Positions 29,383 to 63,072 of a stretch of 64,000 nucleotides of DNA are shown piece after piece. The notes under the pieces are model-generated. The model was not told the DNA's origin. It saw nothing but the letters and a program-made list of their open reading frames with translations, and made no database searches. Position numbers and translations under genes: made by a program. Every line of letters begins with the position of its first letter. Positions within the stretch are counted from its first letter, which is position 1. Origin of the DNA: Tubulanus polymorphus (lineage: Eukaryota > Animalia > Nemertea); the NCBI RefSeq assembly GCF_964204645.1, contig NC_134025.1, positions 11,718,001 through 11,782,000 on the forward strand, given 5' to 3'.

Positions 29383-29431
29383 CTTGATCGCTGAATCCCT
29401 GTTTCCACTAATTGCTCGAGAGGGACCACAA

Positions 29432-29675
29432 TGTTGGTGAATGACTGTAATGGTACTGTGATCCTCTGGTTATTGGTAAGAGACAACGTAACAAGACCTG
29501 GTTACTGTATACTGACTGACTGGAAACATTTATTCGGAGCTTATATACAACAATTATGAAAGAGAGGATTATTTTGACATTTGAATGGTTTTGAGTTTGA
29601 ACAGTTTTGGTTGATTTGGTACCTGTAATATAATAGTATAGTACTGTAATATAAGCCTATATACAATTCCCGACA
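29432..29675 (-). repeat. BEL/Pao 5' LTR
   Basis: Direct repeat of 21735-21978. Confidence 0.95.
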
Positions 29676-31322: not shown

Positions 31323-31357
31323 CAAGACGTTTTGGCCTTCAAGCCTTCATCAATTGA
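31323..31357 (-). ncRNA. Degenerate minimal type-I hammerhead ribozyme in PLE pseudo-LTR
   Basis: Minus strand CAA-UUGAUGA-A-GGC-UUGAAG-GCC-AAAA-CGUC-UUG. Layout and position fit PLE hammerheads, but the core has C3U and G12A deviations. Confidence 0.5.
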
Positions 31358-31514
31358 GAATTGAATTAGACGGTTGAAGCAACAATACATCGTTGATAAG
31401 GAAACATTATACCCGCAAATAAAATACAAATATGGAATTTTCAACATGAGAATGAATGGATTAACAAGTACGAGCTTTCACAGATATATTATACATAGTA
31501 ATAATGATAATCAA

Positions 31515-31583
<69 letters not shown>

Positions 31584-31622
31584 TATTATTATTATTATAA
31601 TAAAAATAATAGTAGTAGTAGT
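31515..31622. repeat. (AAT)n/(ATT)n microsatellite in PLE 3' region
   Basis: Direct read. Confidence 0.9.
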
Positions 31623-31729
31623 CATATGAAATACTGACCTAACACCAATAACGATAACAATAATGTACCACAAGAGACAATTTATCAGATGGGGATTTCA
31701 TTTAAATATCGACATAAACTGAATTAGAA

Positions 31730-33490
31730 TTATCTACGATAGGTATCATCTTCGAGATTAAGGCCGCAGGGGGACAACGTATTAAGTTTGTGGATGTAGA
31801 ATGATTCCTTGAGGCGACGTTCAGAAGTAGATTCTACGCTTTCAATGGCAGTAACCGAGATATCTGACAGGCTGTGATTGTTTGAATTGAAATGTTGTGC
31901 AACGAGGGTGTTAGTGTGATTTTTGGTGATAGAATAAAGATGCTCCCTGAATCTATCACCTAATCTTCGTCCTGTTTCACCGATATATTTGATATCACAT
32001 TTGAGGCAAATGAGGCAATAAATGACGTTAGCACTAACGCATGAGAAGGACTGTTTTATACGGACGGATGAATGGCTCCCCACGATAGATTCAATATTAC
32101 CTATTACATGATCACATGTTTTACAAATTCTGCGTTGACAAGGGAAAGTGCCAGGAATTTCACATTCCTTATTTAGTTTAGTACGCACGAGCTTACTCCC
32201 AATACATCTGTCATTTTTGAAGCAGGTAAGGAGGTAACTGTCAAAAAGGTGTCCAATGTCATTGTCCTCGGATAGAATGTGAAAGTTACGTTTGATGGCA
32301 CGTGCGACTTTAGAACTATATTGATTGAATGTAAGAACTAGAGGAATTTTATGTTCGGAGCTTTTCACGGTTGTGGTCAGAGTGGTAGATCTTTCTATTC
32401 TACGGCATTTGTCAAGAGCTCTTGATAGGAGATTTTCAGGATAGCCACGTTCAGAGAAAAATATTCTCATGTCGTTAGATTTAATTTTGAAGTCCTGATT
32501 GTCAGAACAAATACGCCTTAGTCGCAAGAATTGGCTAAATGGTATGCTATTGATACATTTAGATGGATGGTTTGAATCATATCGAAGATAGCTGTGTGAG
32601 TCGGTGTTTTTATAGTGGACTGACGTTTCAATTTTGTTCGGTCCAACACTAAATATGGTGTCAAGAAAAACCTCGGATGTATCAGATATGGAGTGAGTTA
32701 CTTCGATGGACCTATGAAAGCTATTGAAACTTTCGATAAAGTTTTCCAAATTCTCGCGTGACATATCGGTTTTACCCGCAACATCGTCAATAAATCTAAC
32801 ATAAATGTCCGGTATGGGGCCTTGGAAGCTATCGAAAAAGCATTTCTCAAGATGCCCCATGAAAATATTAGCGTAAACAGGCCCAAATCGAGTTCCCATG
32901 CTAACTCCCGATACTTGGTCGTAAAAACGACCATTAAATTCAAAACAATTTCTTGTGAGCACCAGTTCAGCAAGACGCAAAATAGTGACAGTAGGTATAA
33001 CTGGGTTGCGGTTAAGATCTAAGTAATATTTGAGGGCACGGAGGCCATCAGCATGGGGAATGTTAGTATATAAGGATTTTACATCCATGGTAAATAATAG
33101 CGTATTTTCGGAAACAGGTACATCCTTAATTAAATTGAGAAAATGGGTAGTATCCCTTACATATGATGGTAGTGTGGTGACAATATGTTGGAGGTGATCA
33201 CTTAAAAAGTGTGAGATTCTTTCAGTCGGGCAAGAACATGCTGACACAATCGGTCGGCCGGGATTGTTAAGTTTGTGAATTTTAGGAAGCATATAAAATA
33301 TACTACACCTGGGTACATTATTGATAAGCGATGCAGCCGTTTCAGGTAGATTGCCTAAATTAATTTCTTGTTTTATAATAGTAGCAATATAGTCATTGTT
33401 TTCGATAGTTTTATCGGTTGATAGTTCCACATAAAAGTTCGAGTCTCTGAGTTGACGTTCAGCTTCATTTATGTATAGTCCTTCTGCCAA
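31730..33490 (-). CDS. Penelope-like RT and GIY-YIG endonuclease
   Basis: LPKIHK..PGRPIVS, DVKSLYTNIP, GVSMG, RFIDD, FLD, SNHP, IPFSQFLRLRRICS, VIYCLICLKC..YIGETGRRLGDRFREH. Confidence 0.93.
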   Translation of the reverse strand: MAEGLYINEAERQLRDSNFYVELSTDKTIENNDYIATIIKQEINLGNLPETAASLINNVPRCSIFYMLPKIHKLNNPGRPIVSACSCPTERISHFLSDHLQHIVTTLPSYVRDTTHFLNLIKDVPVSENTLLFTMDVKSLYTNIPHADGLRALKYYLDLNRNPVIPTVTILRLAELVLTRNCFEFNGRFYDQVSGVSMGTRFGPVYANIFMGHLEKCFFDSFQGPIPDIYVRFIDDVAGKTDMSRENLENFIESFNSFHRSIEVTHSISDTSEVFLDTIFSVGPNKIETSVHYKNTDSHSYLRYDSNHPSKCINSIPFSQFLRLRRICSDNQDFKIKSNDMRIFFSERGYPENLLSRALDKCRRIERSTTLTTTVKSSEHKIPLVLTFNQYSSKVARAIKRNFHILSEDNDIGHLFDSYLLTCFKNDRCIGSKLVRTKLNKECEIPGTFPCQRRICKTCDHVIGNIESIVGSHSSVRIKQSFSCVSANVIYCLICLKCDIKYIGETGRRLGDRFREHLYSITKNHTNTLVAQHFNSNNHSLSDISVTAIESVESTSERRLKESFYIHKLNTLSPCGLNLEDDTYRR

Positions 33491-34518
33491 ACTACTATGG
33501 CACCACCTTTGTCTGCTTTCTTGATGACTAAATCTTCTCTGGTTTGCAACCTTTTTAGTGCTGTCTGTTCATCACGAGTCATGTTAGTCTTTTTGGATCG
33601 TGGTGTCTGGATCTGTTCAATTGAATTTTGGCATGTCCTGATGAAATTTGTGATAGCTGTAGGAGTGTCTTCGGGAATCCATATGCTCTGCTTTTTAGGT
33701 TTGTATTTATTGAAGATGGAGGGATCGTCATCGATGTTGTTCAGGTGTTTGTCACGGATGGTTTTGTTGGGATCATTAAAGTGAGCATGTAATTTCAATC
33801 TTCTGTAAAATTCGTTGACCTGGACCTTCGTGGTTGAAACTTCAGGCTGAGGAGTGGGAATGAATTTGAGACCTTTCGAAAGCACAGATCTTTCATTGTT
33901 CGACAATTCAAGGTCTTCTGGTATAGTCACAACTAGTTTCGTTTGACTGACATTTGTAGAGTTAGTTTTCGGTTGAAGTGCTTTTAGTTTGGTGTGTTTA
34001 GTCCGTTTTAGATCTTCGTAGAGTAGGTTGTTCAAATTCCGGATAAGTTGCTTGATGGTATAAAATAGGTTGGTATCAGTAGTTTCAGATAAATGTTGAC
34101 GGGATGATGAGATTGTTTCGTTTATACCTAGGATCTTTCGCTCGAATTCCTTGATGGCGGTACGCATTAATTCTCGAGAACATCTAGTCGTAATTTTGTT
34201 GATTTGAGATTGGTACATACCCGTGCGATGGATTAAGAAACCTTTTGGGATGATACGTTGGTGTAAACAGTCTCTTAGGAAACTGACGTGGCTGCAAAAT
34301 CTCGTTTTCTTGAAGATCACATTTCCGTACACGTTGATTTGGCTTCTGATATCTGGTTGTTTGCTCTGCGCGAATATTGCCAGTCTTCGGTGTATGTTCT
34401 TCAAGATCTTCATTTGAGGGAACGGTTGTTGTTGATTTGTTGATGTGATGCGTATTTTGTTCCCCTCACCTCCGGTAAGACTTAATAAAATACAGATATT
34501 GACTATGACGAGGTGCAT
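33469..34518 (-). CDS. Penelope-like ORF N-terminal part (frameshifted relative to RT)
   Basis: FLRDCLHQRIIPKG, LSKGLKFIPTP, EFYRRLKLHAHF, VIKKADKGGAIVVW; frameshift near 33480. Confidence 0.85.
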   Translation of the reverse strand: MHLVIVNICILLSLTGGEGNKIRITSTNQQQPFPQMKILKNIHRRLAIFAQSKQPDIRSQINVYGNVIFKKTRFCSHVSFLRDCLHQRIIPKGFLIHRTGMYQSQINKITTRCSRELMRTAIKEFERKILGINETISSSRQHLSETTDTNLFYTIKQLIRNLNNLLYEDLKRTKHTKLKALQPKTNSTNVSQTKLVVTIPEDLELSNNERSVLSKGLKFIPTPQPEVSTTKVQVNEFYRRLKLHAHFNDPNKTIRDKHLNNIDDDPSIFNKYKPKKQSIWIPEDTPTAITNFIRTCQNSIEQIQTPRSKKTNMTRDEQTALKRLQTREDLVIKKADKGGAIVVWQKDYT

Positions 34519-34607
34519 CTTTTATTTTCTTCACTACAAGACGTAGTGAAGAAAATAAAAGATGCACCTCGTCATAGTCAATATCTGTATTTTATTAATT
34601 CTAGACT

Positions 34608-41914: not shown

Positions 41915-43755
41915 TGCTTAACCTCACATGAGGGGGGAATGACAGTCATTCGCGTAACCTTGACTGACGAAGACTTGCCCAAATTGACGGTATGGTTGAA
42001 GTAAATTGCATCGGCACCTGGTAACAAAAGGGCCTTTCTTGCATAATCAATAACTGCCTGGTTTTGTTCTAAGAAATCGGCTCCAAGAATTGCATCAGAC
42101 GTGATACCGTACATAGAGTGCGAAATTTGCAAATTGCCTATACAAAATCCACAGAAATAACTCCGAGATTTAGTTCCATCTACCCCACGGGCAGATTGGA
42201 ATTGACCCACCTGCAAAGGGCCATTTGATATCTGAGGATCAGTCGTGAAATAATTGTTTGATAATACAGAAATTTTGGCGCCCGTGTCAATCAAAATACT
42301 TAACGGTGTTCCTGAATGACAACCTGTCACTCGGTTGGCAACAGTTGCCATAATTGACGGGGAATAAGCCTCCTGTCCAAAGGTGTTATTTTTACAGGAA
42401 AAAGACTCGATGTCGTTGGTTGACGAATCATCTAAACCGGTTGTAACAAGTGGGAATGGTTCCTGACAGTGGACAGTTGGTTGACACTGGTTGACATTTG
42501 AGTTCGAATTTCCTATCCCAACATTGTCGTTGATTGGTGTAATCGGTTTAGACGTGGGGACAACCTCTGTCCTGTTCGTTGGACATTCCATCACCAACCG
42601 GATGATGAAAACTACTAGTCTTTGAGGTGACAGGACGATCCTGTTCTTTTTCGAATAACTGACAACAATTTTCCGACGTTGACTCCTGATTTGATACATT
42701 TGACAAGATAGTCCTTGTATTATCATGATCATTACGACATTCCGACCGTGAACTGTTATTACTTAAATCTGATGACACAAGGTCACATTGTACCGCTGAT
42801 ACGGAAGTTACTGGGTACTTATACTGACCAAGAGTGTGTTCATGACAATTGAAATGAGACTTTTTATCTCTAAAAAGGTTATCTTCTGCCGAATCCGTCG
42901 GACCATTAACGCCTCTAGGGTGTGACCTATCGATTCAAAACTTGTCACCCAAGCACGCCATATCAGTACGTACCTGCTGCAATTCAACCGGATCGCTGAA
43001 CGTGACCCTCCTGTGTCTTTTTACAGGCTCTTTAGTAACCGACAACTGGGAATTATCCCTCCTGTTGTCCTCAAAATTGGATCCTTGATCCATATAAAAA
43101 TTTCCATCTAATGACAACTTGGAATTGTCCCTCCAGCTGTCCCCAAAGTTACGATCCTGAATGTCATAAACGTCATCGGCACCCCATGAAGGAATGTGAT
43201 AACCAATAAACTCATCTAAATGTATAAATTCATTGTCATCAAAGTAATCTGCATTACAGTTCTCCTCAGGTTCAAAATAACAAGATAATGAGTCACCTAG
43301 AATATCGCCTTGATCAAACGACAAGTCAAATATACCATCCTTTTCGTCCATCATAATCAAAAATATAAATTGAAGAAAACGCCGTCAATACCAAACGAGG
43401 GTCGTGGAAGATGGCTGAAATCGTATAGACATACGCCGGTGATGATAACTTTGTTCGCGTTGTTGATGTAAGGTGTGCTGATGGAAGTGTTCTCAAACGT
43501 CCCATTACGAAATCAGTGCTCCTGATGAAGAGAACCGAGAGAATGGACTTGATATAATTCGTGGTTAAGCGTTCATATAAGACATTTCGCATGTTCCAGA
43601 ACGTTCTGATGTTCGAAAACAAACATTTATTGCTAGTTAGCGTGAGAACTCTAATTCGTGTTTCGTTGTCAATTGTCGGACTGTCGTTGTCTTATCTAAG
43701 GTAACCCGAATATGAGTCGTCCCACCAAAAATCACTCCTTATCGCCGAATCGTAT
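41915..43755 (-). pseudogene. Gypsy host copy (family A-related): acidic spacer and aspartic protease, decayed
   Basis: Inverted homologue of ~46610-48170; LIDTGAKISV and ILGADFL; stops and frameshifts. Confidence 0.85.
43365..43700 (+). pseudogene. BEL/Pao pol C-terminal fragment embedded in the Gypsy copy
   Basis: RGSWKMAEIV*TYAGDDNFVRVVDVRCADGSVLKRPITKSVLL, a BEL C-terminal pattern. Confidence 0.7.
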
Positions 43756-45017
43756 TGATCCACAGCTAGATTTTCGTAGTAACTGAAAATGTTTCGTAGT
43801 ATTTAGAAATGTTCTTAATGTTGTTTCCGTATGCGTGGGGGTTACGCTAAAGCCGTCAGACAAGAACGTACTAGTAGTAAGAATTACGAAAGTTCTTGTT
43901 TGATGCTTTCATCTACCAACGCAAACCATAAATCAGTCTATAAACAACAATTCTTTCTCGGTTCTTCTGCTGTGAGATCTGGCAAACATTCAGAAAATCT
44001 TTATATAAAACTTTTAAATAGTTGGAACCATATTTGGTTGGGTCGGAACAATGGAGTGTATTTATAATGAGGCTCGTGAAGGGATCACGCTGATACTTGA
44101 TGATATTCCCGGCTACTTTCCGTAAAAGGAAAAACCGGAAGTTTAGGAAGATGTGGTTGTTTTGCTTATCCTGTATTAAAATAGAATTAGTTAAATTGTA
44201 GATAAAATAATTAGTATAAGTATTTCAAATAATTTAAGAATTGATAATCAATCACAATGTATTCCGAATCGTAGTTAATTATAATAATTAAAAAAGAAAC
44301 AATGAATTTGTACTGTAATTAGAAAAGAAAACAAAGTTTTGAAAAGATATTTAATTTGAATATCCTAGATGTTAAATGAGAACAAAGTCTCTATAATCGC
44401 TAATGTTTTAGACAAATTAATTTGTGTTAAATGTTAAAACTAGCTGTCTGAAGTTTCTGTTGTCTGTATGCGCTCGTTGGTAATTCACAGACAATAGCTG
44501 CTCTCTCAACAACGACTAGCAAGGAGTGAGTAAATCACAACGCGTCATGACAGGAGGGTTGGAAGGAAAAAGTTAGTTTAGCAAATCAGTTTTGAAAATA
44601 ATTTTAGATCAGCGAATCATTAAGGCCAAATTCTATATGACCAAAACAGTCACGACAGTAACGTTGCTGCTCCTTGCCAAAAGTCGAGTGGGAGAGTCGG
44701 TATTTTAAGAATGCCGATTCTTTCTGTAAAAGGGACCCGCATCTTGAGAGAGCAGTTAATCGGGAGAATCTGTACCTTAGTAAGACGAGTGTCGACAGCA
44801 GGACAGGAGAAGCTTCGGAACGATAGGGATTCATATAATAGGGATTAGGAAAATCATTCTCAGGTTCAAGGTAAATAGAATATATTATCTTCAATATTAT
44901 CATCCGGTATTTCAGTTTATTCATTCAGATTTGTGCACGGACACGTTCTCTCGCCAGGGCCTTACTCAAGTATTTTAATAGATAACGATTAAAGAGAGGA
45001 TTGTGACCGGTGTATCA
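43756..45017 (+). repeat. Gypsy A 5' LTR
   Basis: Direct repeat of 49974-51227. Confidence 0.93.
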
Positions 45018-45018
45018 C

Positions 45019-45031
45019 TGGTGCCGAAACC
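45019..45031 (+). promoter_or_regulatory. tRNA-Phe primer binding site
   Basis: TGGTGCCGAAACC, complementary to the 3' end of eukaryotic tRNA-Phe, 1 nt after the LTR. Confidence 0.85.
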
Positions 45032-45176
45032 ATATTGATTAATTATTGTGTCGAGCTTTTATTATTTGTAATTTATTAATTTTAATGGTTCGAATTTTTA
45101 TTTGTTCACACTGTGGTGAGAAGAACGCTTTTTCAAAGAAGCGCCGCACTCCAGTAAACAGGCCGACACAGGCATT

Positions 45177-45429
45177 GTGGGATTCGAACCCACCCCGTGC
45201 ATGACCATTTCAGATCCCGGAGGAACTTCGAGAGCCGTCGTGGGATTCGAACCCACCACTGCACGCTCATGTGTAATACCGGAGGAGTGTCGGGGACCTC
45301 TGTGGGATTCTAACCCACTCGCCATGCAGGTCGACACCGATGGGGCTGCACTACAGCCATTGAGGGGTTCGAACCCTCCACCTTGTGAATTGCCAAAACC
45401 GTCCAGCCAGGATGGGGAATCGAACCTAC
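45177..45429 (+). repeat. Array of 5 T-arm/B-box-like hairpins (GGGATTCGAACCC) in Gypsy leader
   Basis: Units at 45177, 45240, 45302, 45362, 45413. Confidence 0.8.
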
Positions 45430-45496
45430 ATCTGTTTTTTTGGGTTGGAAAATTTTAAAATGTTATTTTAGATTAGTATTCGTTTAAAGATATACA

Positions 45497-46562
45497 ATGT
45501 CGACTGGAGGGGAGACGACGTACGGTGCGGGTGGCTCACGGGAACGATCCGCTGTAAGCAACGACACTGTTCTGCAGGCCCTCTCTGGCCTTCGCGAACA
45601 GGTGGACACAGCCACGGCGTTCATGAATTTCTCTTTGCTCCCTAAATTTACGGGACGAGACGACCAGTGCGTCACTGATTGGTTCAGAGGATTTGACCGT
45701 TTGGCCGATCTAAGGGGTTGGAACGATGACGCTAAAAAGAAACAGTTGTATTGGTTTTTGGCTGGCCCGGCCCTAATCTTATTTAATGATCTTCGAATTG
45801 ATCAGGGTATCGATGCGACCGGTAGAAATATTGCCACTCCCTGGGAGCATATTGTTCATGCATTTTGTTTACAATTTAGCCCCACCTCGTGGGCTTTGGT
45901 CAAGGAGTCGGCTTTGACGACGATGCGACAGGGGGAGACAACCGGTCGATAGGTTTGCGGAAGAGATTGATCGTGTGGCCTCGAGTTTGAAATTTTCGGA
46001 CCACCAGAAAAAGATGTTACTAATTAACAACTCTCGCCCTGACATCTCTGTCTACCTGTTGTCACAGCGTCCGACGACATTTAGGGATGCATGGGAGGCA
46101 GCCAGAATGGCGGAGCATATCGAACAACGTAAAGCTCTGTCGTCTCCCAAGGTATCGCAAATTGGGACCGAACCAAATAAAGCGATGGGTGATGTCATGA
46201 CTGAGCTACGGGACATGTTTCGCCAGATCATGGACACTCAAAAATCTACCCGTACTCAGCGAAATGATAGAGGTACCTACTATAGTGAGAACCGTCAATC
46301 ACAAAGGTCGCAAGATGGACAGGTGGTGTGCTATCAATGTCACGCCCCTGGTCATTACGCCAGGAATTGCCCGACGTGGCGTTACGACCAACAAAGGTCA
46401 CGGGTCTCGCCAAACCGGGACGCATTTCAGTGTGATAATCGCCGGCCCCAAAATTCTGGTAGGGGTCAGTTTCGGTCACAGAATCTTGGGCATGATTCCC
46501 AACGGGTTAATCGAACATTTGGTCAGGGAAACGACCGGAGACCTCATCCTATGGACCGATAA
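45497..46562 (+). pseudogene. Gypsy gag (capsid + CCHC knuckle), one frameshift near 45945
   Basis: LPKFTGRDDQCVTDWFRGF...GW...FLAGPAL; MRQGET; CYQCHAPGHYARNC. Confidence 0.88.
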
Positions 46563-46587
46563 GGGTGGGGTCGCGCAATGAATGGTC
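46526..46587 (+). promoter_or_regulatory. -1 ribosomal frameshift signal (G GGA AAC + stem-loop/pseudoknot)
   Basis: Heptamer 46526-46532 is in gag frame; 7-nt spacer; 11-bp stem 46540-46550/46562-46572; the -1 frame is open into the 647-aa ORF. Confidence 0.75.
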
Positions 46588-48508
46588 AACTGAGCCCTCG
46601 CCGGACTCGTTAATAAGGAGTGATTATTGGTGGGATGACACATATTCGGGTTATCATAGTTATGATAATGACAGTCCGGTAATTGATAGTTATATCTGTG
46701 ATGATGATGATTATTTTGAGGACGATAGGGATGATATATTTGACATGTCATTTGATCAGGGCGACATGCTAGCTGACTCATTTTCTCTTTATTTTGAACC
46801 TGAGGGGAACTGTAATGCAGATTACTTAGATGACACTGAACCTTTACATTTAGATAAGTTTATTGATTATCACACTCCTTCATGGGGTGCCGATGACGTT
46901 TATGACATTCAAGATCGTAACTTTGGGGATAGCTGGAGGGACAATTCTCAGTTGTCGTTAGATGGAAATTTTTATATGGATCAGGGATCCAATTTTGAGG
47001 ACATCTGGAAGGACAATTCCCAGTTGTCGGCTACTTACGGGCATATAAATAGACACAGGAGGGTTACGTTTAGCGATCCGGTTAAATTGCAGGAGGTACG
47101 TGCTGATATGGCGTGCTCAGGTGACAATCTTAGTATTGATAGGTCGCACCCTAGAGGGGTTAATGGTCCGACGGTTTCGGCAGAAGATGACCTTTTTAGA
47201 GATAGGAAGTCTCATTTGGATTGTCACAAAGGCGCTCTTGGTCAGCATAGGTACCCAACAACCTTCGAATCAGCAATACAATGTGATCTTGTGTCATCAG
47301 GTTCAAGTAGTAGTAATAATTCACGATCGGAATGTCTTAATGATCAGAGCAATATGGAAACTATTTTGTCAAAGATATCTAGTCAGGAGTCAATGTCGGA
47401 GAATTTGTGTCACTCGTTTGAAAGAGGACAGAACTTTCCTGTCACCTCAAATGCCAGCAGTTTTCACCATCCAGTTGGGGATGGAATGTCCCATGAACAG
47501 GACAGAGGTCAAGTTGTCCTCACGTCTAAACCGAATATGCCAATCAACGAAAAGGTTGGGATAGGAGATTCGAACTCCGATTGTCAACCAACTGTTCACT
47601 GTCAGGAACAATTTCCACCTGTTATGATGACTTTAGGTTACACGTCAACCAACGACATAGGGTCCTTTTCCAGTCAGAACAACACTATTGGACAGGAGGC
47701 TTATTCCCCGTCAATCATGGCAACTGCCGCCAACCGAGTGACTGGTAGTCATTCAGGGACACCGTTAAACATTTTGATTGATACGGGTGCCGATATTTCT
47801 GTAGTGTCAAACAATTACTTCATCAATCATCCTCAGATATCGAATGGCCCTTTGCAGGAGGGACAATTTCAGTCCGCCCGTGGGGTAGATGGTACTAAGT
47901 TTTATTTAAAAGGTGTTATTTCCGTAGATTTTGTATTAGGAAATTTGGACGTGTCGCACTCTATGTACGTGGTCGACGGTATCACGTCCGATGTAATTCT
48001 CGGAGTTGATTTCCTGGAACGAAACCAGGCAGTTATCGATTATGCTAAAAAGGCTCTCTTGTTGCCAGGCGCCGACATAATTTACTTTAGTAATGATGTC
48101 ATCTTGGGGAAATCTTCGTCGGTTAAAGTCACGCGTATGACTGTTATTCCCCCTTCATGCGATGTCACCGTAGACCGTAAGTGGTTAATTGACAAGTCTC
48201 AGTCATCGATTGCAGCCTTTGAGCCTGTTCATGATTTGAGAATGCGTGATCTCATGAGCGCAAGGTCAGTTGTTAGCGTCATGCCATCAAGGCATAGGCT
48301 TCGACTCACGAACCCTACGTCACGACACGTCTCCCTCTTTGAAGATACGTGTCGTAGTGATTCGTGGACAGATGGGTGGTCACTTGACCGATCACTCAAA
48401 ACAGAGGCGAAGTCAGGACAGCTTCCTCGGCCACCGGAGGTGTCTATCACACATGTGGAAGACCCTCAGACGTCAGACGAAATTTGTAAGTATAATCGAA
48501 TTATTTAG
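46565..48508 (+). CDS. Gypsy pol N-part: ~400-aa acidic spacer + retropepsin, truncated before RT
   Basis: LIDTGADISVV and VILGVDFL; the ORF ends without RT motifs. Confidence 0.85.
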   Translation: MGSRNEWSTEPSPDSLIRSDYWWDDTYSGYHSYDNDSPVIDSYICDDDDYFEDDRDDIFDMSFDQGDMLADSFSLYFEPEGNCNADYLDDTEPLHLDKFIDYHTPSWGADDVYDIQDRNFGDSWRDNSQLSLDGNFYMDQGSNFEDIWKDNSQLSATYGHINRHRRVTFSDPVKLQEVRADMACSGDNLSIDRSHPRGVNGPTVSAEDDLFRDRKSHLDCHKGALGQHRYPTTFESAIQCDLVSSGSSSSNNSRSECLNDQSNMETILSKISSQESMSENLCHSFERGQNFPVTSNASSFHHPVGDGMSHEQDRGQVVLTSKPNMPINEKVGIGDSNSDCQPTVHCQEQFPPVMMTLGYTSTNDIGSFSSQNNTIGQEAYSPSIMATAANRVTGSHSGTPLNILIDTGADISVVSNNYFINHPQISNGPLQEGQFQSARGVDGTKFYLKGVISVDFVLGNLDVSHSMYVVDGITSDVILGVDFLERNQAVIDYAKKALLLPGADIIYFSNDVILGKSSSVKVTRMTVIPPSCDVTVDRKWLIDKSQSSIAAFEPVHDLRMRDLMSARSVVSVMPSRHRLRLTNPTSRHVSLFEDTCRSDSWTDGWSLDRSLKTEAKSGQLPRPPEVSITHVEDPQTSDEICKYNRII

Positions 48509-49973
48509 AGTTTGGATCAAGATGCATACGTCCTATTGAAAATTATGAATTGTATACGGTAAGCGTCTCTTCAGTAAGTTATCGAAATATAATTACATAA
48601 GTGTTGTGAAACTGAAGTATATATAACGCATTGTTGCCAATGAGTTAACTCCTGATCTGGGTTTAATCTAATATAGGAGATAAAGACAACCATAAATAAA
48701 GTGAATAATAGCTTGATTGTCGTGATATTGGTTTTTTTTTCGCTGAAATATCACTAGTCTCTAGGGTTTATTATCCGTAGTCTGAATGGATGTCATTGAT
48801 TGTCAGTTAGAAAAGAAAGAGTTATGAAATTTTTATATAATCTCTGTGTTTTTATTTGATTGTAAGGTACCCTTATCGGATTTGTGAAGATGAGACCGTC
48901 GGGATATGACAGCACTACGATGGAAGAATGTCTTCTTCTGTCAACCGCAATAGATGTTGACGGGTACCCCCCTGATAGTGACCATATGGAGATGGGGACT
49001 TGTTGGGAGGTATCCTGAAACTCTATTCGACGCAACTGATAGTATGATAAACCAGCAACTGGTATGCTCTGGTCGAGATGGGTGATATTAATTCACCGAT
49101 TCGTCAATTAACGAGGAAAAAGGAACAACTATATACAGCCTACAACAACGATCTAGGGCGTTGCTGTTTCAACGGGATGGAATCATGCTCGATGATTAGT
49201 CATGCGATTCTGGCCATTGTTAGTGGTGTTTGTCACTCTCGAAGACCTGTTATATACTCACAAACTTAAGTGATGAAGGGTGGACAAAGACACCTGGCCA
49301 ATGCGATACGAAATATGAAGAAAAGTGATAATTTCCGTAGACATTTTAGCGGAGTAAAGCCGAGTGTGCTCAAGATGGCTCCCGTGTAGTTACATTAACA
49401 TTCGATGGAATGTTGTTCGCTCAAGCCGTAAGATGCGAATACATTACTGTTCCGTTTCTATATTAACTGTGGAGAAAAGACTCCGATATAGTAACCGTAG
49501 TACTATAGCGTCTATGAATAACGAGCAAGTATCAGCTGAACATCAATGCGTTTTGCCGTACTATCGACGTTGCAGTACGCGCTTCGAGGAACTGCGGTGG
49601 ATGACGTCATTCGTCCGTCCATGACGTACTTTGTTGTGTCTGGTAGCTGTTGCGTCACTTCGCGGTAAATTCTAAACTCAAACTGTGAACTGTTTTGTGC
49701 TTAACTTTCGACTGTTTAGTGTGCGGGGACAGCGGTCTCGAATGAACTTTTTTCCGATTGGGTATCCAGAACTTTAAATGCGGTTTTATGATAAACTATA
49801 TCATGAACTTTAATATGCGTTGTAGTGTCGAACTCTAAGAAATAGTTACTCGTTATAATGAATTGTTTACTAATGTTCTTTTTCAGGATTTGTTCTAGAG
49901 GTATCAGCGGGATATTCACGAGTTGGTTTAAATTCAAAATTTCGGGACGAAATTTAAACTGGATAGGGAGTGT

Positions 49974-51227
49974 TGATCCACAGCTAGATTTTCGTAGTAA
50001 CTGAAAATGTTTCGTAGTATTTAGAAATGTTCTTAATGTTGTTTCCGTATGCGTGGGGGTTACGCTAAAGCCGTCAGACAAGAACGTACTAGTAGTAAGA
50101 ATTACGAAAGTTCTTGTTTGATGCTTTCATCTACCAACGCAAACCATAAATCAGTCTATAAACAACAATTCTTTCTTGGTTCTTCTGCTGTGAGATCTGG
50201 CAAACATTCAGAAAATCTTTATATAAAACTTTTAAATAGTTGGAACCATATTTGGTTGGGTCGGAACAATGGAGTGTATTTATAATGAGGCTCGTGAAGG
50301 GATCACGCTGATACTTGATGATATTCCCGGCTACTTTCCGTAAAAGGAAAAACCGGAAGTTTAGGAAGATGTGGTTGTTTTGCTTATCCTGTATTAAAAT
50401 AGAATTAGTTAAATTGTAGATAAAATAATTAGTATAAGTATTTCAAATAATTTAAGAATTGATAATCAATCACAATGTATTCCGAATCGTAGTTAATTAT
50501 AATAATTAAAAAAGAAACAATGAATTTGTACTGTAATTAGAAAAGAAAACAAAGTTTTGAAAAGATATTTAATTTGAATATCCTAGATGTTAAATGAGAA
50601 CAAAGTCTCTATAATCGCTAATGTTTTAGAAAAAATTTGTGTTAAATGTTAAAACTAGCTGTCTGAAGTTTCTGTTGGCTGTATGCGCTCGTTGGTAATT
50701 CACAGACAATAGCTGCTCTCTCAACAACGACTAGCAAGGAGTGAGTAAATCACAACGCGTCATGACAGGAGGGTTGGAAGGAAAAAGTTAGTTTAGCAAA
50801 TCAGTTTTGAAAATAATTTTAGATCAGCGAATCATTAAGGCCAAATTCTATATGACCAAAACAGTCACGACAGTAACGTTGCTGCTCCTTGCCAAAAGTC
50901 GAGTGGGAGAGTCGGTATTTTAAGAATGCCGATTCTTTCTGTAAAAGGGACCCGCATCTTGAGAGAGCAGTCAATCGGGAGAATCTGTACCTTAGTAAGA
51001 CGAGTGTCGACAGCAGGACAGGAGAAGCTTCGGAACGGATTCATATAATAGGGATTAGGAAAATCATTCTCAGGTTCAAGGTAAATAAAATATATTATCT
51101 TCAATATTATCATCCGGTATTTCAGTTTATTCATTCGGATTTGTGCACGGACACGTTCTCTCGCCAGGGCCTTACTCAAGTATTTTAATAGATAACAATT
51201 AAAGAGAGGATTGTGACCGGTGTATCA
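49974..51227 (+). repeat. Gypsy A 3' LTR
   Basis: Direct repeat of 43756-45017, preceded by a polypurine tract. Confidence 0.93.
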
Positions 51228-51231
51228 GTAT

Positions 51232-52426: not shown

Positions 52427-53790
52427 CTAAGGGCAGACTGACTTTCCGAAAATTGGCCTCCCTCTGGGTGACAGATCCAACGGTTGGTCAACCGCAGATG
52501 CACCTAAGGAGAAGTCTAGTGGAAAATTTTGGACTTGTGTGCCCGAAGGTCCGCACAACAATTGGCCAGCTATGGGCGTATCAACTACTAACGGTCTGTT
52601 TTTGAAAGATCGAGTTACAGACAGGTCTGCCGGTTGCTCTATGTTGAATTGACCAATGCCTATAGGTGGACCAGGCGGCTGCGAACAACAGCACGAAATA
52701 CTCGAGCCGCTGGAACCCGTTGATCCAGCTGATGACGGCGGCCGTGTGGAAGGTTCACCAGTCCGTATCGAGCAATACCGGTTCGAATCCGTACTCGTAG
52801 GACTTAGGGGCGGAGGAGGGGTCACTGAAAGTGAACAAGTATATACAATTTATCCAGTCCTGAAAACCGCTAACGTCGGGCACGCACAATACAAACAGCG
52901 TCTGAAGACTGAGAAGTTGGGGTCCCAGCACTGGTCCCAGGAGGAGACTGCGCAGCAGCTATAATCATAGGCGCTGCAGGTGCCACACTCCAGTAGTGAG
53001 ACACTTTTTCTGGGGTAGCGTACTCCAATAACCAGTGCTAGCGACGTTTGTTTGTGCACCTCACCGTAATCGGCCCCGACATTAACGTACTAACTCACGG
53101 ATTATAAGTAATACAAAACAAAAAATTATACAATATGTATATAATATCTTATAACGATCCCAATAAATAAACCCCAAATTATTCAAAATAGCTGTATATC
53201 CGCCACTTGTCAGCCAACAATACGTCGTGATCAGGGATAGCGCATAAACTGAAATCCCCCTGATCCCAGGTAGACGAATAAGTTAACCTACTGGGTGGAG
53301 GGTTCGAATCCCTCAGTGTCTGTCCAACGGCTCCATTGTTGGTGGTACCCTTGGTGCTGAGTGTGTTCGAATCCAACAGTGGCTGTTCGACAGCACTGTC
53401 GTTGGTGGTACCCTTGGTGCTGAGTGCGTTAGAGTCCCACAGTGGCTCCCTTAAATGAGCTCATACCTCCCAATAAGACTTGGGAACTGGGGCAAGCGTG
53501 TGTGTCTTGTAAACCGTTGCCCCACAGTGACCACACTTCAACCCAACGGACATGTATCAACCACAATAAAAAAATTAAAGTATTAAAAATTTAAAAAATA
53601 TATATATGTATTCAACCAAATAACAACAGGCAATCGTGATGATAACAATTGAATGGTACTATAATACCCCACTTGGTCTATGCTGGACAAAGAATGTAGC
53701 CATCTGCGTCTTTATCACCAAAGTACAACTCGGCCGGGTTCGCAAAATCGCGAAAGAGATGTGCCCAAAATGGGTCGAATTTTAATCTAT
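52427..53790 (-). pseudogene. Gypsy accessory region upstream of gag: Cys/His modules, DSNP repeats, PxDLS-motif ORF
   Basis: FDPFWAHLFRDFANPAELYFG..LCPA; CYHHDCL; LKCGHCG; EPLWDSN repeats; LECGTC...CLYCAC; PADLS/PLDFS/PLDLS. 53040-53790 is homologous to 58975-59595 (+). Confidence 0.6.
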
Positions 53791-55218: not shown

Positions 55219-55601
55219 GACTTGCATGACTCGCAAGGGAAGAGAGTACATGGACCATGACTTGCATTGATATGAGAGTACATGGACTATAACTTGCAAA
55301 GAAAAGGAGTAAATGGATCATGACTTGCAAGGGAAGAGAGTACATGAACCATGACTTGCAAGGGAAGAGAGTACAAGGACCATGACTTGCATTGATAAGA
55401 GAGTACATAGACCATAACTTGCATTGATAAGAGAGTACATGGACTATAACTTGCAAGGAAAAGGAGTAAATGGATCATGACTTGCAAGGGAAGAGAGTAC
55501 ATGGACCATGACTTGCATGAGGAAGAGAATACATAGACCATGACTTGCACGGGTAAGAGAGTACATGGACGATGACTTGGATGGGGAAGTACATGACTTG
55601 C
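55219..55601. repeat. ~30-31-bp minisatellite (catgacttgcaagggaagagagtacatggac), ~12 units; 3-4 more units at 56700-56808
   Basis: Direct read of tandem units. Confidence 0.9.
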
Positions 55602-55727: not shown

Positions 55728-56305
55728 TGCCATTAGGAGACCAATTTCTTGCAAGTGTCTCTTCTTTCCACCTTTTGTAGGCTGCCTCATCCTTTCTATA
55801 TCTCCAACACGGCAAATGCGATGATGACTCAGTTGTAAAACAGGGTATGGTGTATTGTTCGAGAAAGTGGCCACCATTGACGATGGTCATTCCGATTGGC
55901 TGCACACCATGGTCATACCCTGGATACAAGTTCAACCCGTCAACTTAGACATGCCAACGTGTGATCGTAACGATGAAGTTTGCAATAGTTTTACTGACAC
56001 CCTCAAATTTTTGCTATTTAAACATAATGCTTTGATCGAGAGTGTTCAAACTAACATGAGAACGGTTCAGAAATTGATTTCAAGTACGGATGCGCCGAGG
56101 AATAGTAGGGCTAAATGTACTGCTGGGTTTTTTGCTAGTGTTTTTAAATCATTATTCGGCACTGCGCTTGTTGACGATGTCCTGCAAGTACAGGATCATG
56201 TCAATCGGGTGGAAAAATTGACGAAATTAAATACGAAACAAATAAATTCTTTGACAAAACGTTTGGTCCATTTGCAGGGGCTGTTGATAAACGAATTGAT
56301 AATTC
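55728..56305 (+). pseudogene. Envelope (F-type fusion glycoprotein)-like N-terminal fragment
   Basis: YGVLFEK...WLHTMVIP, two Cys, heptad-like helix, RAKC (RAKR with CGT>TGT) followed by fusion-peptide-like AGFFASVFKSLFGTA and a coiled coil. Confidence 0.7.
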
Positions 56306-57441
56306 CATGTCCTGGAACTGGAACTTCACTGGAAATCGGAACTGGAACTCGAGAAATTTTATTCTATATGCAGTTAGTTCAGTTCACATAACTGTATGCA
56401 AAATTATATAAAAAACTTATTCAACTTGATATGACATCGATGTAAAGGATTCTAACACACACAAGCAACGAATAAACATTTCACGGACATTAATTCAACG
56501 TCTCAGACTTTGTTCTTGATCCGGTATACCAGTACTTACATTATGCGATGATACCATGCATCATCACACTTTGTCAGGCCCTCACAAGTGCTAGTGTTAT
56601 GCCATATAAGGTATGATGTCGGGGCCTCGCCGAACTAGCGGCTGATGTGGGTGTCAGCTACTTCCTCATATCAGATTATAGATAAGAAGATAAATAAGAA
56701 GAGAGTAAATGGACCATGACTTGCAAGGGAAGAGAGTACATGGATAATGACTTACAAGGGAAGAGAGTGCATGGATCATGACTTGCAAGGGAAGAGAAGG
56801 CATGGATCGAGATGAAACTTTCAAACTTAGGCGATTAAGGGGGGGGGGGGTTGAAAACTAATTAAAGAAACATGGACCAATTAGCAAAAGATGAATCAAA
56901 TCCATTTCAGAATCAAAACCATAATAACAACATTTATATCATTGAAAATCAAACAACTGATGCCTGTTGGTGCCAATAAGAAGGCGTTTTTCTGAAAATA
57001 AGTCAATCCAAGACATCGTATCATGTTTGTAAGTTTGTTTTGTTGCTCATATTCTGTATTAATAATTCTGAAAATAGTGATTTACTGGTTGAGAGTTCTT
57101 AGATACCAATGAAGCCTCAGTTATGCATGTGAAACACTTATTTTATCTTATATTGGAGATTTTAATATGTTAAATATTTTGGGTCTTTTTATGGTCATCT
57201 TGCTAATGAGATGGGTTGGGGGAATTGGCTATATATACTGGGATTTTTGGACCGTTTGGGGTACCGCTAGAAATATTTAGATCGTTGAGATCAGTTCATG
57301 TAATAGAGAGAACGCTGTGAGATAAAAATAAAAATAACTCTGAAGACAGGAACTCTGTGTGGTGTGACTTGTTTTCTTCTCTGACGTTTTGTGGTATTTT
57401 CACTCACTCAAGCGAAATTCAAACATCCCGTTGGTGACAAA

Positions 57442-58055: not shown

Positions 58056-59600
58056 TAACAGTCATGACAGTTAGGTTGCTGCTCTTTGCCAAAAGTTGAG
58101 TGGGAGGGACTCGGAATTTCAATAATGCCGACTCTTTCTATAAAAGGGGCCTGCAGTCTAGGGAGAGCAGACACTCGAGAGACATTCAATGGACACTCGA
58201 TAGACACGAGAAATTTGTTAGAGACTAATGCTCGTGAAAGTTGCTGACAGGAGCATAAGAAACTAGAGCTAGGGACCTGGATTGTGGTTGTTGGCTGAAC
58301 ATTAAACTATTTAAGGTAAATAAGCTTCGTTTATATTATTATCATTAATCAGGATTCCGGCAATTCTAGTTTTTACTTGGCTTTGTGCACGGACACGTTT
58401 TCTCGCCAGGGTCCGATCTCTACGTTTAACAATTAACGATTAAGGAGAGGATTGTGACCGGTGTATCATTGGTGCCGAAACCCGTACTGTTTATCAGTTG
58501 CCGGAAATTTTTTTTGCATTGATCAATCATTGTTGTTCGAATGGTACATATTTTTGTATGTTCTCATTGTGGTGCGAAGAACGTGTTCTCTAAGAAGCGG
58601 CGCACCACAACCGACTCGACACGCGGAAAGTAATTGTGGGAGTCGAACCCACCTAGTATACAACCATTTGAAATTCCGGCGGAGTTTCCGGAACCATTGT
58701 GGGATTCGAACCCGCTGCCCACTCCGGTCATCCCTGTTGTTGAGACATTGCGGGATTTGAACTCGCGCTGTACGCGACCATTCGAAATTTCGGAAGAGCA
58801 TAGGGAGCCATTGAGGGATTCGAACCCGCTGCCGACTTTGGCCGTCTTTGCTGAGCCTTTGCAGGATTCTAACCCAACTGCTACACAGCACGAGGCCTCA
58901 GTTTCGATCACATCAAGGGATTCGAACCCCCTAGAACGCCGGCAAAGGGTAAAGCCGGTGAGAGTGCCGGAAAAACTCGACCCATTTTGGGCACATTTCT
59001 TTCGCGATTTTGCCAACCCGGCCGAGTTGTTCTTCGGTGACGCAGGCGGCAACTTTCTTTGTCCAGCCTAGACCGGGGAACTACCGTTAGTTGATATCAT
59101 CGCGATTGTCTGTTTTTTGTTGTTGATGCATGTTAGTTGGGTTGAAGTGTGGTCACTGCGGGGCAACGGTTTTTAAAATGCGCACGCTTGCCCCAGTTCA
59201 CGAGTCTAGTCGGGAGGTACCGGCTCGCATATTAAGGGAGCCACTGTGGGATTCGAACCCACTCGGCACCAAGCGTACTACCACCGACGGAATTGTTGAA
59301 CAGCCGCCGAGGGATTCAAACCCTCCACCCAGCAGGTTGCTTTATAAGGCTACCCGGCATCGGGGGGGGGGGGATTTTAGTTTATGCGCTATCCCTGATC
59401 ACGACGTATTGTTAGCCGACAGGTCACATGTTTAGGGTTACTTCGAGTGATCTGGAATTTTACAGTGTTATTTTGTAATAACGTTTTGCATACTACGTAT
59501 TTCTTTTGATATTCATCTATCGCGTGTTAATGAGGGGCCGATACCAGTTCGGTGTACGAATAACGTCAGAGCGCTGGCTATTCAGGTGCCCGAATTCGGG
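58056..59600 (+). mobile_element. Gypsy A-related fragment: LTR 3' part, tRNA-Phe PBS, accessory region
   Basis: LTR end gaggattgtgaccggtgtatca at 58468; PBS 58470-58483; ORFs 58634-59071 and 59130-59435. Confidence 0.8.
58636..59325 (+). repeat. Array of 8 T-arm/B-box-like hairpins encoding (W/R)DSNP repeats
   Basis: Units at 58636, 58699, 58750, 58813, 58861, 58915, 59246, 59309. Confidence 0.82.
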
Positions 59601-60503
59601 TGAAGGAAATCACGGCGATGTAGTCATGAGAAGAATTCGTGGAAATGAGCAATTATGAAATAAACTTATGAAACACTCGCTGACCCTTCGTCTGATAAAT
59701 CAATTATAAGGAGTAATTAAAGAGTAATATTAAAGAGTAATATTAAAGAGTTTTATTATTCTAATTAATAAAAGTTTGTGTCTTTAAATTTGAATGTACT
59801 AATTATGATAAAGAATATAAATAAGAAAGATGATATTTTGGCTTACATTGTATATTACTATTTAGACAAAATTAAATACCGTTCATTATGGGAATTGTGA
59901 TCATTGGATAAGTTAAATAAATGAGTTCGAGGGTTGGAAAAATAATATGTAATCTCTTCGGTGGGGTTGAGAAGGAGATCAGACGGGCAGGTATCATGAC
60001 GTCGAGGGTCGAGTTTAAGTTAGCGGCGAATGAAAAGTCTAAGAATCAGGACCCCAGCTCTGCGTCGTGGTGCTGCGTTGGTTGCTCGTTCTCTTTTACG
60101 GCTGGCCGCAAGCAGGGTTCCGGATTTTTCTTGGGTGTGGACTCAGCCGTATAAGAGAGGCAGCACTGCGAGAGAGATCAGACTATTTTAGAGAGCATTT
60201 TCAGAGGAAGCATTAGAAGACTATAGAACAGATAACTTTCGGCTATCCGGTATAATTGTATCTTCTTGGGTGTGGGATTTACAACAAAATTCAAAATTAA
60301 AAGGTAGGGAATTTTATAAATTGTTGAGATTGAAGTTAAGTTTAAATTGTTAGAATAAAAGTTGAGTATCATCATATTTAAATCCGGAGTTCCTTTTTAT
60401 TCCTTGGTTTTCAGGTTTCTGTGTTCGTGGTCGACTTTCTCGCTGGGGACTGGAGTTTGTAATAGAGGAAAAAGACAATAGAGAAAGGGACCGCGGAACA
60501 TAT

Positions 60504-60521
60504 TGGTGCCGAAACCCGGGA
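60504..60521 (+). promoter_or_regulatory. Perfect 18-nt tRNA-Phe PBS after an LTR ending at 60500
   Basis: TGGTGCCGAAACCCGGGA, preceded by ...ccgcggaaca-tat. Confidence 0.88.
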
Positions 60522-60920
60522 ACTCTGGAATAATATATAATAAATTAACTACTTCAAATTCCAATTTGAATAACACAAAAAATTCTGAATTTCGACAATA
60601 ATATATATATAGATTTCTGAATTATGGATGAAGAGATCATAGAGAAACCTATGATTTTCTGTTAGAAGTATTTACAGATGGCCTATAGGGTCTCTGTTGG
60701 GCGGAGCAGGATGCGAACGCATCCGGTGACGATGATTCATTTTTACTTATTGTAAATGCTAATGGGCCAAAATTAAGGCACCTTCGAAATTGCCTTTTAG
60801 AAACCACAGAAGTGCTGGGTAAAGGGCACAAGGACCCCTCATGGGCGGAAAGCTCTAGGTTTTTGGCGATGATCTTTCAATAGATTTCACACATTGGCAT
60901 TAGTCATAAGAATATTAGGG

Positions 60921-60951
<31 letters not shown>

Positions 60952-61015
60952 TTATAATATCGGTAATAATAATAATAATATTAACATTAGAAATTGTGAA
61001 CGAAATTTTTTTATA

Positions 61016-63072
61016 ATGACGACTCGAAGTCGGGCCCAATGGAATCCAGGTACGGCTGCTGATTATTCGGTCAGCAATGACACAGTCATGCGGGCGCTGA
61101 CCGGGCTTCAAGAGCAGATGGGCTCAGCAGCAGCATTTGTCAATTATAGCCTGCTTTCAAAATTCACGGGGCGAGATAAGCAAAATGTAGATGAATGGTT
61201 TAGGGGATTTGATAGGCTCGCCAACCTCAGAGGCTTGACCACTGAGGACAAAAAGAAACAGATATTCTGGTTTCTGTCCGGACCAGCTTTGGTCCTTTTT
61301 AACGATTTTAATGCATATCGACCAAGAGATTGATGCAGCTGGCGAACGTATAATGACCCCATGGGATAACATCGTGGCGGCTTTTATCAAACAATTAAGC
61401 CCCACGTCGTGGGCTTTTAGTCAGAGAATCTGCCCTGACAACTATGAAACAGGGAGAGGGGCAACCGATTGACCAGTTCGCCGAGGACATCGATCGGATG
61501 GCCTCTGGCTTATAGTTTTCAGATCATCAAAAGAAAATGTTGTTGATAAACAACTAAAAGCCAGAAATTTCCGTTTATCTGGTCTCCCAGCGGCCCGCTT
61601 CTTTTAGAGATGCCTGGGAGGCCGGTAGGATGGCGGAACACATAGAGAAAAAGAAGAAAACTGCCCCCACGGTTAATCAGCTTGAGGCAAGCCCGAATAA
61701 GGAGGTACGAGAAGTCACGGCTGAATTGCGTGACAAGTTCAAACAACTCATGTCAACTCAGAATAGGGATTCGAACCCTAGACATCATGACCAGCATGAG
61801 AGGGGAGTATCTCCAGATGAAAGGCAATCTCTACAGAGATCAAGTGGAGGGAGCGTGATTTGTTACCGCTGCCACGCCCCGGGACATTACGCCCGTAACT
61901 GCCCTACCTGGCAAGTGGACCAAGGATATCAGAGGCGTCCAGATGACAGAAATGTTAATAATTCTAGCCCGGCAAACACTAGACGATATAACAATAGAAG
62001 ATTTAGCAATCAACGCTCAATTTTGAATAGGCCAAATCAGGGAAATGCCATGGGACCTCATCATGGTATACCACTTAATATTCTTATTGACACCGGCGCG
62101 GAAATATCAGTTTTAAATAGTGGTTGTTTACATAGGAATTCGCAGATTCAGTCAGGTGAAACGCGAGAAGGACTATCCCATTCTGCTCGTGGGGTAGATG
62201 GTAGTAAGTTTGGAGGAGTAACTTGCGAGGATTAGCAGACATAAAATTCCAGCTGGGTAATCTAGATCTCACCCATTCTATGTATATTGTCGATGACGTG
62301 AGCTCCGATGTTATTCTCGGAGCAGACTTCCTAGAACAGCAACATGCTGTTATTGATTACAGCAAGAAAGCTTTCCTGCTGCCAGGTGCCAACACCATCC
62401 ATTTTAGTAGCTATACAGTCAAATTAGGAAAACCCTCGACAGTTAAAGTGACCGAAATGACAATTGTCCCACCTTTGTGTGAAGTTATTGTGAAAGGGAA
62501 CTGTTCGTCGGACAAACCTCCAGCGCCGTTTGCTGTATTTGAGCCATCTAACCATCTACGCACTCAGGATTTGTTAGGTGCTAGGTCAGTAGTTGATGTC
62601 ACTTCAACAGGGATTCCCATTAGCGTCATGAAATCAAGGGGGATTTTGGCCAGCTTCCAAGGCCACCGGAGGTCAATTTTACTCGGGTTAACGAGCCGCA
62701 GACATCAGCTGACATACGACTACCGGAGACGATCTAGTCGAGTCAGACCTGACGCTGTCACAACGAACGAAACTTTGTAAGTTACTCCACTCATACAAGG
62801 ATGTTTTTGCTAGGTCCCCAGATGAATTGGGTAAGATGGTCTTTGTCAAACACGTTATAGACACCGGAGATGCACCCCCTATTCTGAAGAGGCCATATAG
62901 GGCAACCCCTCGTATGCAGGAAGTCATCGACACTCATGTCAAACAATGTTGGACAACGGAATTGTTCAATATAGTACGAGCCCTTGGGCTGCTCCAGTGG
63001 CTGTCCAGAAAAAGAGCCCAGACTGCGAGGTCAAGTGGCGATTTTGTGTAGATTATATAGGACTCAAAGAAA
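61016..63072 (+). pseudogene. Gypsy gag-PR-RT(start), family A relative, frameshifted
   Basis: LSKFTGRDKQNVDEWFRGF; CYRCHAPGHYARNC; LIDTGAEISV; ILGADFL; HVIDTGDAPPILKRPYR; SPWAAPV; WRFCVDY, then interrupted. Confidence 0.88.

Follow-up and report, generated by a model that had tools for sequence, protein, structure and literature searches.

A T-arm-like palindromic repeat within the accessory reading frames of a Gypsy retrotransposon leader: possible dimer-linkage sites

Results

Nested Gypsy elements in the window

The window, by which we mean the whole 64-kb stretch of DNA analysed here, appears from its translations to be animal DNA dense in nested retroelements, four of which, the related Gypsy elements A, B, C and D, bear on the repeat array described below (Table 1). 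The array is hosted by a multi-copy Gypsy LTR-retrotransposon family with a polycistronic leader. Element A has the structure of a Ty3/Gypsy element, with two LTRs, a tRNA primer-binding site (PBS), a PPT (a purine run ahead of the 3' LTR) and a short target duplication (4-bp GTAT flanks at its termini). Pfam domains above the cut-off were zf-CCHC and gag-asp_proteas in A and zf-CCHC in C, in agreement with a gag-then-protease order. Inspection by eye found no reverse transcriptase between the LTRs of A, and A is therefore likely to be non-autonomous; no complete pol of this family was found within the window. The 1.5 kb of A at 48500-49960, where the remaining pol would be, looks non-coding. 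An acidic, Asp/Tyr-rich region of ~400 codons lies between gag and protease in A (46511-47740) and in D (42548-43384, minus strand) and is absent from C.

A has inserted into element D, an older copy on the minus strand, whose gag begins at about 52224, after ORFc. Only the 5' end of B is visible, because B is interrupted at 59601 by the insertion of C; reads continue upstream of 58057 into A-type LTR sequence, and reads of C-type LTRs start at 59601. Supplement 1 of PMC13524379 lists, under the Phe(GAA)/His(GUG) type, the 12-mer that is the reverse complement of the B PBS. Read depth on the B leader reached 213-318 compared to 11-14 in the lowest bins, from which we estimate roughly 15-25 copies of the family at ≥80% identity, a rough figure that is inflated where units cross-map. 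Copies beyond the window are known from reads and contigs, and all of the evidence comes from one genome.

Table 1. Elements, leader reading frames and 17-nt units in the window (positions are those of the window).
Feature	Position	Strand	Description
Element A	43752..51228	+	LTRs 98.7% identical; PBS 45019; gag and protease
A leader	45085..45429	+	ORFa 45085-45276; five units at 45177, 45240, 45302, 45362, 45413
ORFc of D, broken	52427..53060	-	Cys-rich first half, then PADLS (52633), PLDFS (52522), PLDLS (52483)
D leader	53298..53783	-	ORFa tail; ORFb (ATG 53553, one stop); three units, 53424-53440, 53361-53377, 53298-53314
Element B 5' LTR, 3' part	58057..58469	+	69% match to LTR end and leader of A; TATA-like box 58139 (TATA scan)
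B PBS, Phe(GAA)/His(GUG) type	58470..58482	+	
ORFa of B, 176 codons	58541..59071	+	Interrupted by a single in-frame stop, 58631-58633
First cluster, six 17-nt units	58636..58931	+	58636-58652, 58699-58715, 58750-58766, 58813-58829, 58861-58877, 58915-58931
ORFb of B	59130..59435	+	CxHCG knuckle, two units, disordered remainder
Second cluster, two units	59246..59325	+	59246-59262 and 59309-59325
ORFc start in B	59531..59600	+	Aligns with D at ~53060-53020; cut off by insertion of C
Element C, related family nested in B	59601..63070	+	LTR 59601-60500; 18-nt PBS 60504; gag and protease pieces
Single perfect 17-nt unit in C gag	61764..61780	+	Upstream of zinc knuckle; outer pairs differ

Several features of the window lie apart from the array. 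The regions 20843-29681 and 31220-34544 are presumably a BEL/Pao-like and a Penelope-like element, respectively, each with long ORFs. A fragment at 55828-56391 resembles a retrotransposon envelope ORF, in which a hydrophobic stretch comes after a basic site of cleavage-like type; its only Pfam match (0.046) was to an unrelated family. A tandem array with a period near 31 nt occupies 55225-55600, with a separate partial copy at 56696-56806. On the minus strand, a 732-codon acidic host exon (16863-19061) with DDFGxF and WAxF motifs had no Pfam match, and is presumably aftiphilin-like.

Accessory reading frames between the PBS and gag

The leader that carries the array is protein-coding: in B, two small ORFs with ATG starts, ORFa and ORFb, contain the units in frame. 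The first-pass annotation had likewise proposed that the leader encodes an accessory peptide, which stands, and had missed that there are two separate ATG-started ORFs with CxHCG heads, followed by a third ORF. Translation of the window in all six frames gives four occurrences of the motif CxHCG, and every one of them heads an ORFa or ORFb. ORFa starts 71 nt past the PBS in B and 66 nt past it in A, and it encodes the CxHCG knuckle, a KKRR basic patch, six units of the form (W/R/Q)(D/E)(S/L)N(P/S) and a conserved DPFWAH...LCPA tail. Comparison of B with A gave a dN/dS of 0.06 for the head (first 22 codons; Fisher p 1e-5) and 0.20 for the first 56 codons (p 8e-6), and comparison of the tail in B and D gave 0.38 (p 0.14). 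This substitution pattern indicates purifying selection on ORFa. The stop at 45202-45204 in the A copy is missing from 205 of 212 reads and thus is nearly private to this copy. The leader of C (60504-61017) contains a broken ORF with a DPSW stretch, faintly resembling the DPFW of the ORFa tail, and an AAT microsatellite.

ORFb of B is ~73% identical to the corresponding pieces of D, with a dN/dS of 0.59 that is not significant (p 0.08), and its frame diverges from the sister copy at a G run near 59362-59373. A structural model of ORFb, of low confidence overall (mean pLDDT 58.7), places a beta-hairpin around two cysteines (pLDDT about 80 at residues 1-20) and predicts the rest to be disordered; no match to this model was found in PDB at a Z of 2 or more. 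ORFc of D contains three PxD[LF]S motifs within 50 residues, compared to one other match in the six frames of the window, and we take its PxDLS motifs to be of the CtBP-binding type. Pfam contained no family for any of the leader ORFs. The CxHCG/KKRR proteins may have a nuclear regulatory role.

The 17-nt unit and its array

All eight units reported in B by the first-pass annotation were recovered at the reported spacing, with cores starting at 58638, 58701, 58752, 58815, 58863, 58917, 59248 and 59311, that is, at intervals of 63, 51, 63, 48, 54, (331) and 63 nt. The array begins just downstream of the PBS, as had been stated, the first unit lying 168 nt after the PBS at 58470. The sequence GGGATTCGAACCC is matched exactly by four of the eight units, with one mismatch by two and with two mismatches by the other two. 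At ≤2 mismatches the window holds 24 matches (two of which are one site read on opposite strands) compared to 0.92 expected, and none of 100 shuffles reached 24. The unit counts given below refer to 17 units, five in A, eight in B, three in D and one in C gag, and exclude throughout the weaker matches at 52791 and 47565. The leader of C lacks the array.

Apart from a single additional purine, the unit forms a perfect palindrome of 16 nt, and it contains the palindromic hexamer TTCGAA. Ten near-palindromes of that type are present in the window, of which six are these units. The proposed geometry of a 5-bp stem and a 7-nt loop agrees with Watson-Crick pairing in 14/17 units at pair 5 and in 0/17 at pair 6. 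The reverse complement was confirmed to be the tRNA T-arm by a scan of contigs, in which 18 carried the motif twice and 14 of these had tRNA genes called; the 18 contigs are unrelated phage loci and were rejected as viral relatives of the element. In four of the phage contigs (L008, L013, L017 and L018), two T-arm motifs lie 77-80 nt apart without a tRNA call by ARAGORN, at position about 3001 (2869 in L018). An unrelated small repeat family in the window (8122-8430 and 19537-19945) bears T-arm motifs close to its two ends that point in opposite directions; these arms fold better than shuffles (z -2.5 and -3.4), with no tRNA (ARAGORN) or Rfam call.

The spacing keeps the reading frame in B, in agreement with the first-pass annotation, the six units of the first cluster sharing one frame and both units of the second cluster sharing another. 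In element A (PBS 45019), the spacings of 63, 62, 60 and 51 nt lose the frame, and the last three units are out of frame. Both the 62-nt spacing and the early ORFa end at 45276 are common to a high-depth contig; the last three units therefore lie outside the frame in that subfamily. The claimed covariation of the outer stem pairs holds in part: the score was 0.218 versus 0.098 in shuffles (1/500), and this signal comes essentially from one pair with about three independent events, a control slid by +1 scoring 0.240. G-U wobbles had been thought to favour the sense strand. We counted three favouring sense and four favouring antisense, so that no strand is picked. The wobble that had been cited in unit 3 is apparently confined to this copy, as 64 reads show the same unit type fully paired.

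Constraint on the unit as nucleotides

The codons of the units were compared with a background taken from the gag and protease frames of the elements. Asn is encoded by AAC in 17/17 units (background 46/129, 36%), Ser by TCG in 12/16 (41/209, 20%) and Asp by GAT in 13/14 (93/153, 61%), and the codon preceding the unit has G at its third position in 14/17 units despite TTG/CTG swaps. For most pairs of units, identity in the flanks is close to background. Pair 4 of the stem is Watson-Crick in 12/17 units (U-A seven times, A-U four times and C-G once) versus 6.1 in shuffles (p 0.002), although p-values for the units overstate, because the units are related by descent. This pair joins the non-synonymous first base of the Trp/Arg codon to the synonymous third base of the Pro codon, a link that is needed by neither the peptide nor a B-box.

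Variation among reads gave a similar picture for A: changes were seen at 14 of the 35 spacer positions, including 8 of the 11 synonymous third positions, compared to none of the 17 positions of the next unit, its 4 synonymous third positions included; these figures come from reads anchored by the conserved unit and from 40 of 61 variant rows, of which 31 were used after two in stop codons and seven past the ORF end had been dropped. The orthologous comparison of A and B is only suggestive (identical codons 7/8 versus 13/25, p 0.08). Element C carries one perfect unit in gag, whereas 2.5e-5 exact 13-mers would be expected by chance in its 2,567 nt. Together with the low dN/dS of ORFa, the fixation of synonymous sites in the 17-mer and their variation in the spacers bear out the dual coding proposed by the first-pass annotation, and we consider it probable that peptide and nucleotide constraint both act on the 17-mer.

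Candidate functions of the unit

A number of tRNA-related identities were rejected. ARAGORN and Rfam each returned no call for a tRNA gene or tRNA-like repeat, and the A-box that would be expected of a Pol III promoter lies upstream of none of the 17 units. A tRNA gene, SINE or TRIMp3 was excluded by the lack of a cloverleaf or of an A-box plus B-box, with an acceptor-like stem in 2/17 units compared to 4.5% in the background. Relic PBS copies (0/17 units) and Ty1-type extended primer-binding boxes (2-3 of 7 positions, as deduced from the 18-nt PBS of C) were likewise rejected.

The reading that we prefer, with a probability of about 0.4, is that the units are tRNA-T-arm-derived dimer-linkage or packaging sites of the genome RNA, overlaid on accessory peptides. 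Each unit is predicted to be able to close as a hairpin with a self-complementary loop, and such hairpins could rearrange into an intermolecular duplex of 16 bp in which two purines are bulged, as in the retroviral DIS and Ty1 PAL1/PAL2. Gag/NC would be expected to chaperone this conversion. Several units would give redundancy, and single units could therefore decay; the disordered parts of the accessory proteins in which the units sit would tolerate the overlay, and the unit may have originated from a captured T-arm. A packaging scaffold was among the uses suggested by the first-pass annotation and is the best-fitting of these, but it would work via self-complementarity (from palindrome to extended duplex), of which that annotation made no mention. 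HIV-1 dimerization reportedly uses a palindromic loop. Outside yeast Ty1 and Ty3, little has, to our knowledge, been described of how animal Gypsy elements select and dimerize their genome RNA, and a sharply defined, repeated 17-nt unit that also stands alone in the gag of a sister family is a direct target for testing.

The array lies after the PBS and before gag, and this position supports a role in dimerization. In folding calculations, the homodimer of a perfect unit reached -23.5 kcal/mol, which is 11.5 better than two hairpins (kissing lies outside the folding program), and when the leader is folded without restriction, unit 2 pairs with unit 7 over about 16 bp. Dimer-linkage sites would account for the conservation of the stem and the covariation of the outer pairs, and also for units that persist out of frame and for the single copy in C. 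The fit is poorer for the loop. A dimer site does not require an exact T-arm match, yet the loop is an exact T-loop complement; moreover, the hexamer palindrome is intact in 10/17 units, fewer than the B-box core, and two palindrome-breaking variants are common to many copies, the unit B1 type (58 reads) and the unit A3 type (contig depth 667), for which the dimer gain drops to 6.9 and 2.8 kcal/mol. In-context hairpins were predicted for units 1-6 with a probability of ≤0.25 at three span limits on both strands, and for units 7-8 with a probability of about 1.0 only under the short span limit.

Alternatively, selection may act only on an EPL(W/R)DSNP linear motif in the accessory proteins, with a functionless stem. 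The shared codons would then result from the descent of a T-arm-derived unit, template switching between repeats and templated quasi-palindrome correction, and reads in which whole units are duplicated or skipped are in line with this, as are the selection on ORFa and the weak in-context hairpins of units 1-6. Moreover, changes in the loop fall mostly on third codon positions (Ser TCT three times, Asp to Glu twice and Leu TTG/CTG swaps), as expected from peptide selection. A peptide motif does not, however, explain why the Asn codon and the preceding third-position G are kept in units whose flanks have diverged to background, why the pairing letters are kept when the residues at either end of the unit vary, why the A subfamily retains units out of frame, or why a lone perfect copy stands in C gag, where the gag residues of A and D are unrelated. 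We regard selection on the peptide only as rather unlikely; were it true, the RNA structure would be incidental, and a new sORF family would remain.

The unit may instead be a DNA element, each copy being a minus-strand B-box without an A-box (an extra-TFIIIC site); TFIIIC would be drawn by the array to a place next to the LTR promoter and serve there as a barrier or insulator. Scored with B-box and A-box consensus patterns, the B-box core is kept in 13/17 units, including three palindrome-breakers, with an A-box upstream of none, and the invariant letters are those of the T-loop core; the loop is thus explained slightly better by a B-box (13/17) than by a dimer site (10/17). The array also occupies the same position as cis elements in Drosophila gypsy, Idefix and ZAM. 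Tandem repeats are found in 19 of 49 Drosophila LTR-element 5' UTRs (PMC8872304), and the fission yeast boundaries IR-L and IR-R each contain five TFIIIC-bound B-boxes (PMC7474672). A B-box leaves the stem unexplained, since the outer pairs are kept and covary yet are not needed by TFIIIC. In addition, the key C of the B-box is lost in 4/17 units, once throughout a subfamily, and a single site in C gag, about 1.3 kb past the PBS, suits a barrier poorly. We consider such a DNA element unlikely; if it exists, it would be a retrotransposon using TFIIIC as an insulator.

It is improbable, though conceivable, that all three functions are combined, the T-arm having been turned at once into a multivalent RNA dimer zipper, a TFIIIC DNA barrier and a peptide repeat. 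Such a module would belong to a "complex" Gypsy lineage with a three-gene accessory leader, whose zinc-knuckle nuclear and CtBP-recruiting proteins would regulate the element's own chromatin in the manner of DNA-virus early proteins.

The T-loops of mature tRNAs are modified and buried, which counts against any annealing of the units to them. That the sense units, as T-arm complements, anneal to the T-arms of cellular tRNAs or 3' tRNA fragments and thereby load the primer, bridge two genomes or absorb silencing fragments is very improbable: sequences 3' of the Ty1 PBS do complement the T and D arms of the primer for its packaging (PMC4974528), but the units here agree with the complement of the T-arm of the family's own primer at only 2-3 of the 7 positions that could be compared, have no PBS-like start upstream (0/17) and pair with themselves, leaving little support for the tRNA sponge or primer binding proposed by the first-pass annotation.

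Searches for relatives

ORFa and the gag and protease region had no match in a set of 5.8 billion sequences, and a profile of ORFb and related pieces had none among 1.84 billion representatives. Atlas searches with ORFb and ORFc gave no usable match (best 0.88, a lead only), and contig scans revealed no related locus. Because the searches with gag and protease also found nothing, these results point to poor lineage coverage rather than novelty. In the literature, with subscription titles thinly covered, we found no paper on this design, and the exact 13-mer combined with "retrotransposon" gave 0 papers; an entry in Repbase, Dfam or GyDB may exist.

Comparison with known systems

The first-pass annotation knew of no described Gypsy leader with this design. 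Two small ORFs upstream of gag are in fact known in the MDG1 group (412, mdg1, Stalker, Blood and Tabor, with sORF1 and sORF2; PMC11952523), although the proteins that they encode differ from those found here. As in that group, whose small ORFs lie between LTR and gag with a low dN/dS and whose sORF1 protein is nuclear (PMC11952523), the present leader has two small ORFs upstream of gag, with dN/dS values of 0.06-0.38 for ORFa and 0.59 (not significant) for ORFb. MDG1 sORF1 is predicted to be a helix-turn-helix protein and sORF2 to carry a transmembrane fusogen-like helix (PMC11952523), whereas in the present leader a CxHCG head and DSNP repeats are common to ORFa and ORFb, and a third ORF carries PxDLS. 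The transmembrane helix and polybasic tail of sORF2 have no counterpart in ORFb, whose predicted model contains no helix and whose translation contains no hydrophobic stretch. The palindromic repeat goes unmentioned in the portion of PMC11952523 that describes the MDG1 sORFs. To the few small ORFs known ahead of gag, the leader adds a further kind of accessory gene set, which comprises two CxHCG knuckle proteins and a protein with CtBP-type motifs.

A comparable case is CERV, an accessory protein encoded by the Gypsy-type element Cer1 of C. elegans, which is nuclear and contains a Cys-rich region as well as a short basic NLS; it has three folded domains and a demonstrated role in RNA export (PMC10309623), and no similarity to the leader ORFs was noticed. 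The TRIMp3 elements Helenus, Cassandra and Ajax resemble the present family in being LTR elements with sequence that stems from the gene of a small RNA. What sets them apart is that they are short and non-coding and that their LTRs contain a complete tRNA-like promoter with boxes A and B (PMC10886601), whereas here isolated antisense T-arms without an A-box lie in the internal region and the LTR has a TATA-like box.

Tandem-repeat 5' UTRs are known from ZAM, Tirant and accord (the TERM motif) and from the gypsy and Idefix insulators (PMC8872304), and have in common with the array a repeated 13-bp motif in a Gypsy leader; the TERM sequence is unrelated to the unit, is not a T-arm and, in the sections of that paper on the motif, is not described as coding. 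The fission yeast boundaries IR-L and IR-R share with the array clustered B-box cores without A-boxes (PMC7474672). Here, by comparison, the whole 5-bp T-stem is kept, the sites are protein-coding and TFIIIC binding is putative.

The retroviral DIS and Ty1 PAL1/PAL2/PAL3 resemble the unit in being self-complementary 5' hairpins that can switch to an intermolecular duplex (PMC6844567, PMC4974528). In Ty1, the PAL1/PAL2 hairpin converts to an intermolecular duplex and PAL3 lies within gag (PMC6844567), so that one palindrome in gag, as in element C, may also have a parallel. The leader likewise has hairpins with a self-complementary loop near the PBS and a predicted extended duplex, with the reservations on hexamer and in-context folding given above. 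DIS and PAL comprise one to three unrelated palindromes, whereas the leader sequence here carries, within a coding frame, as many as eight copies of a single T-arm-like unit across 690 nt.
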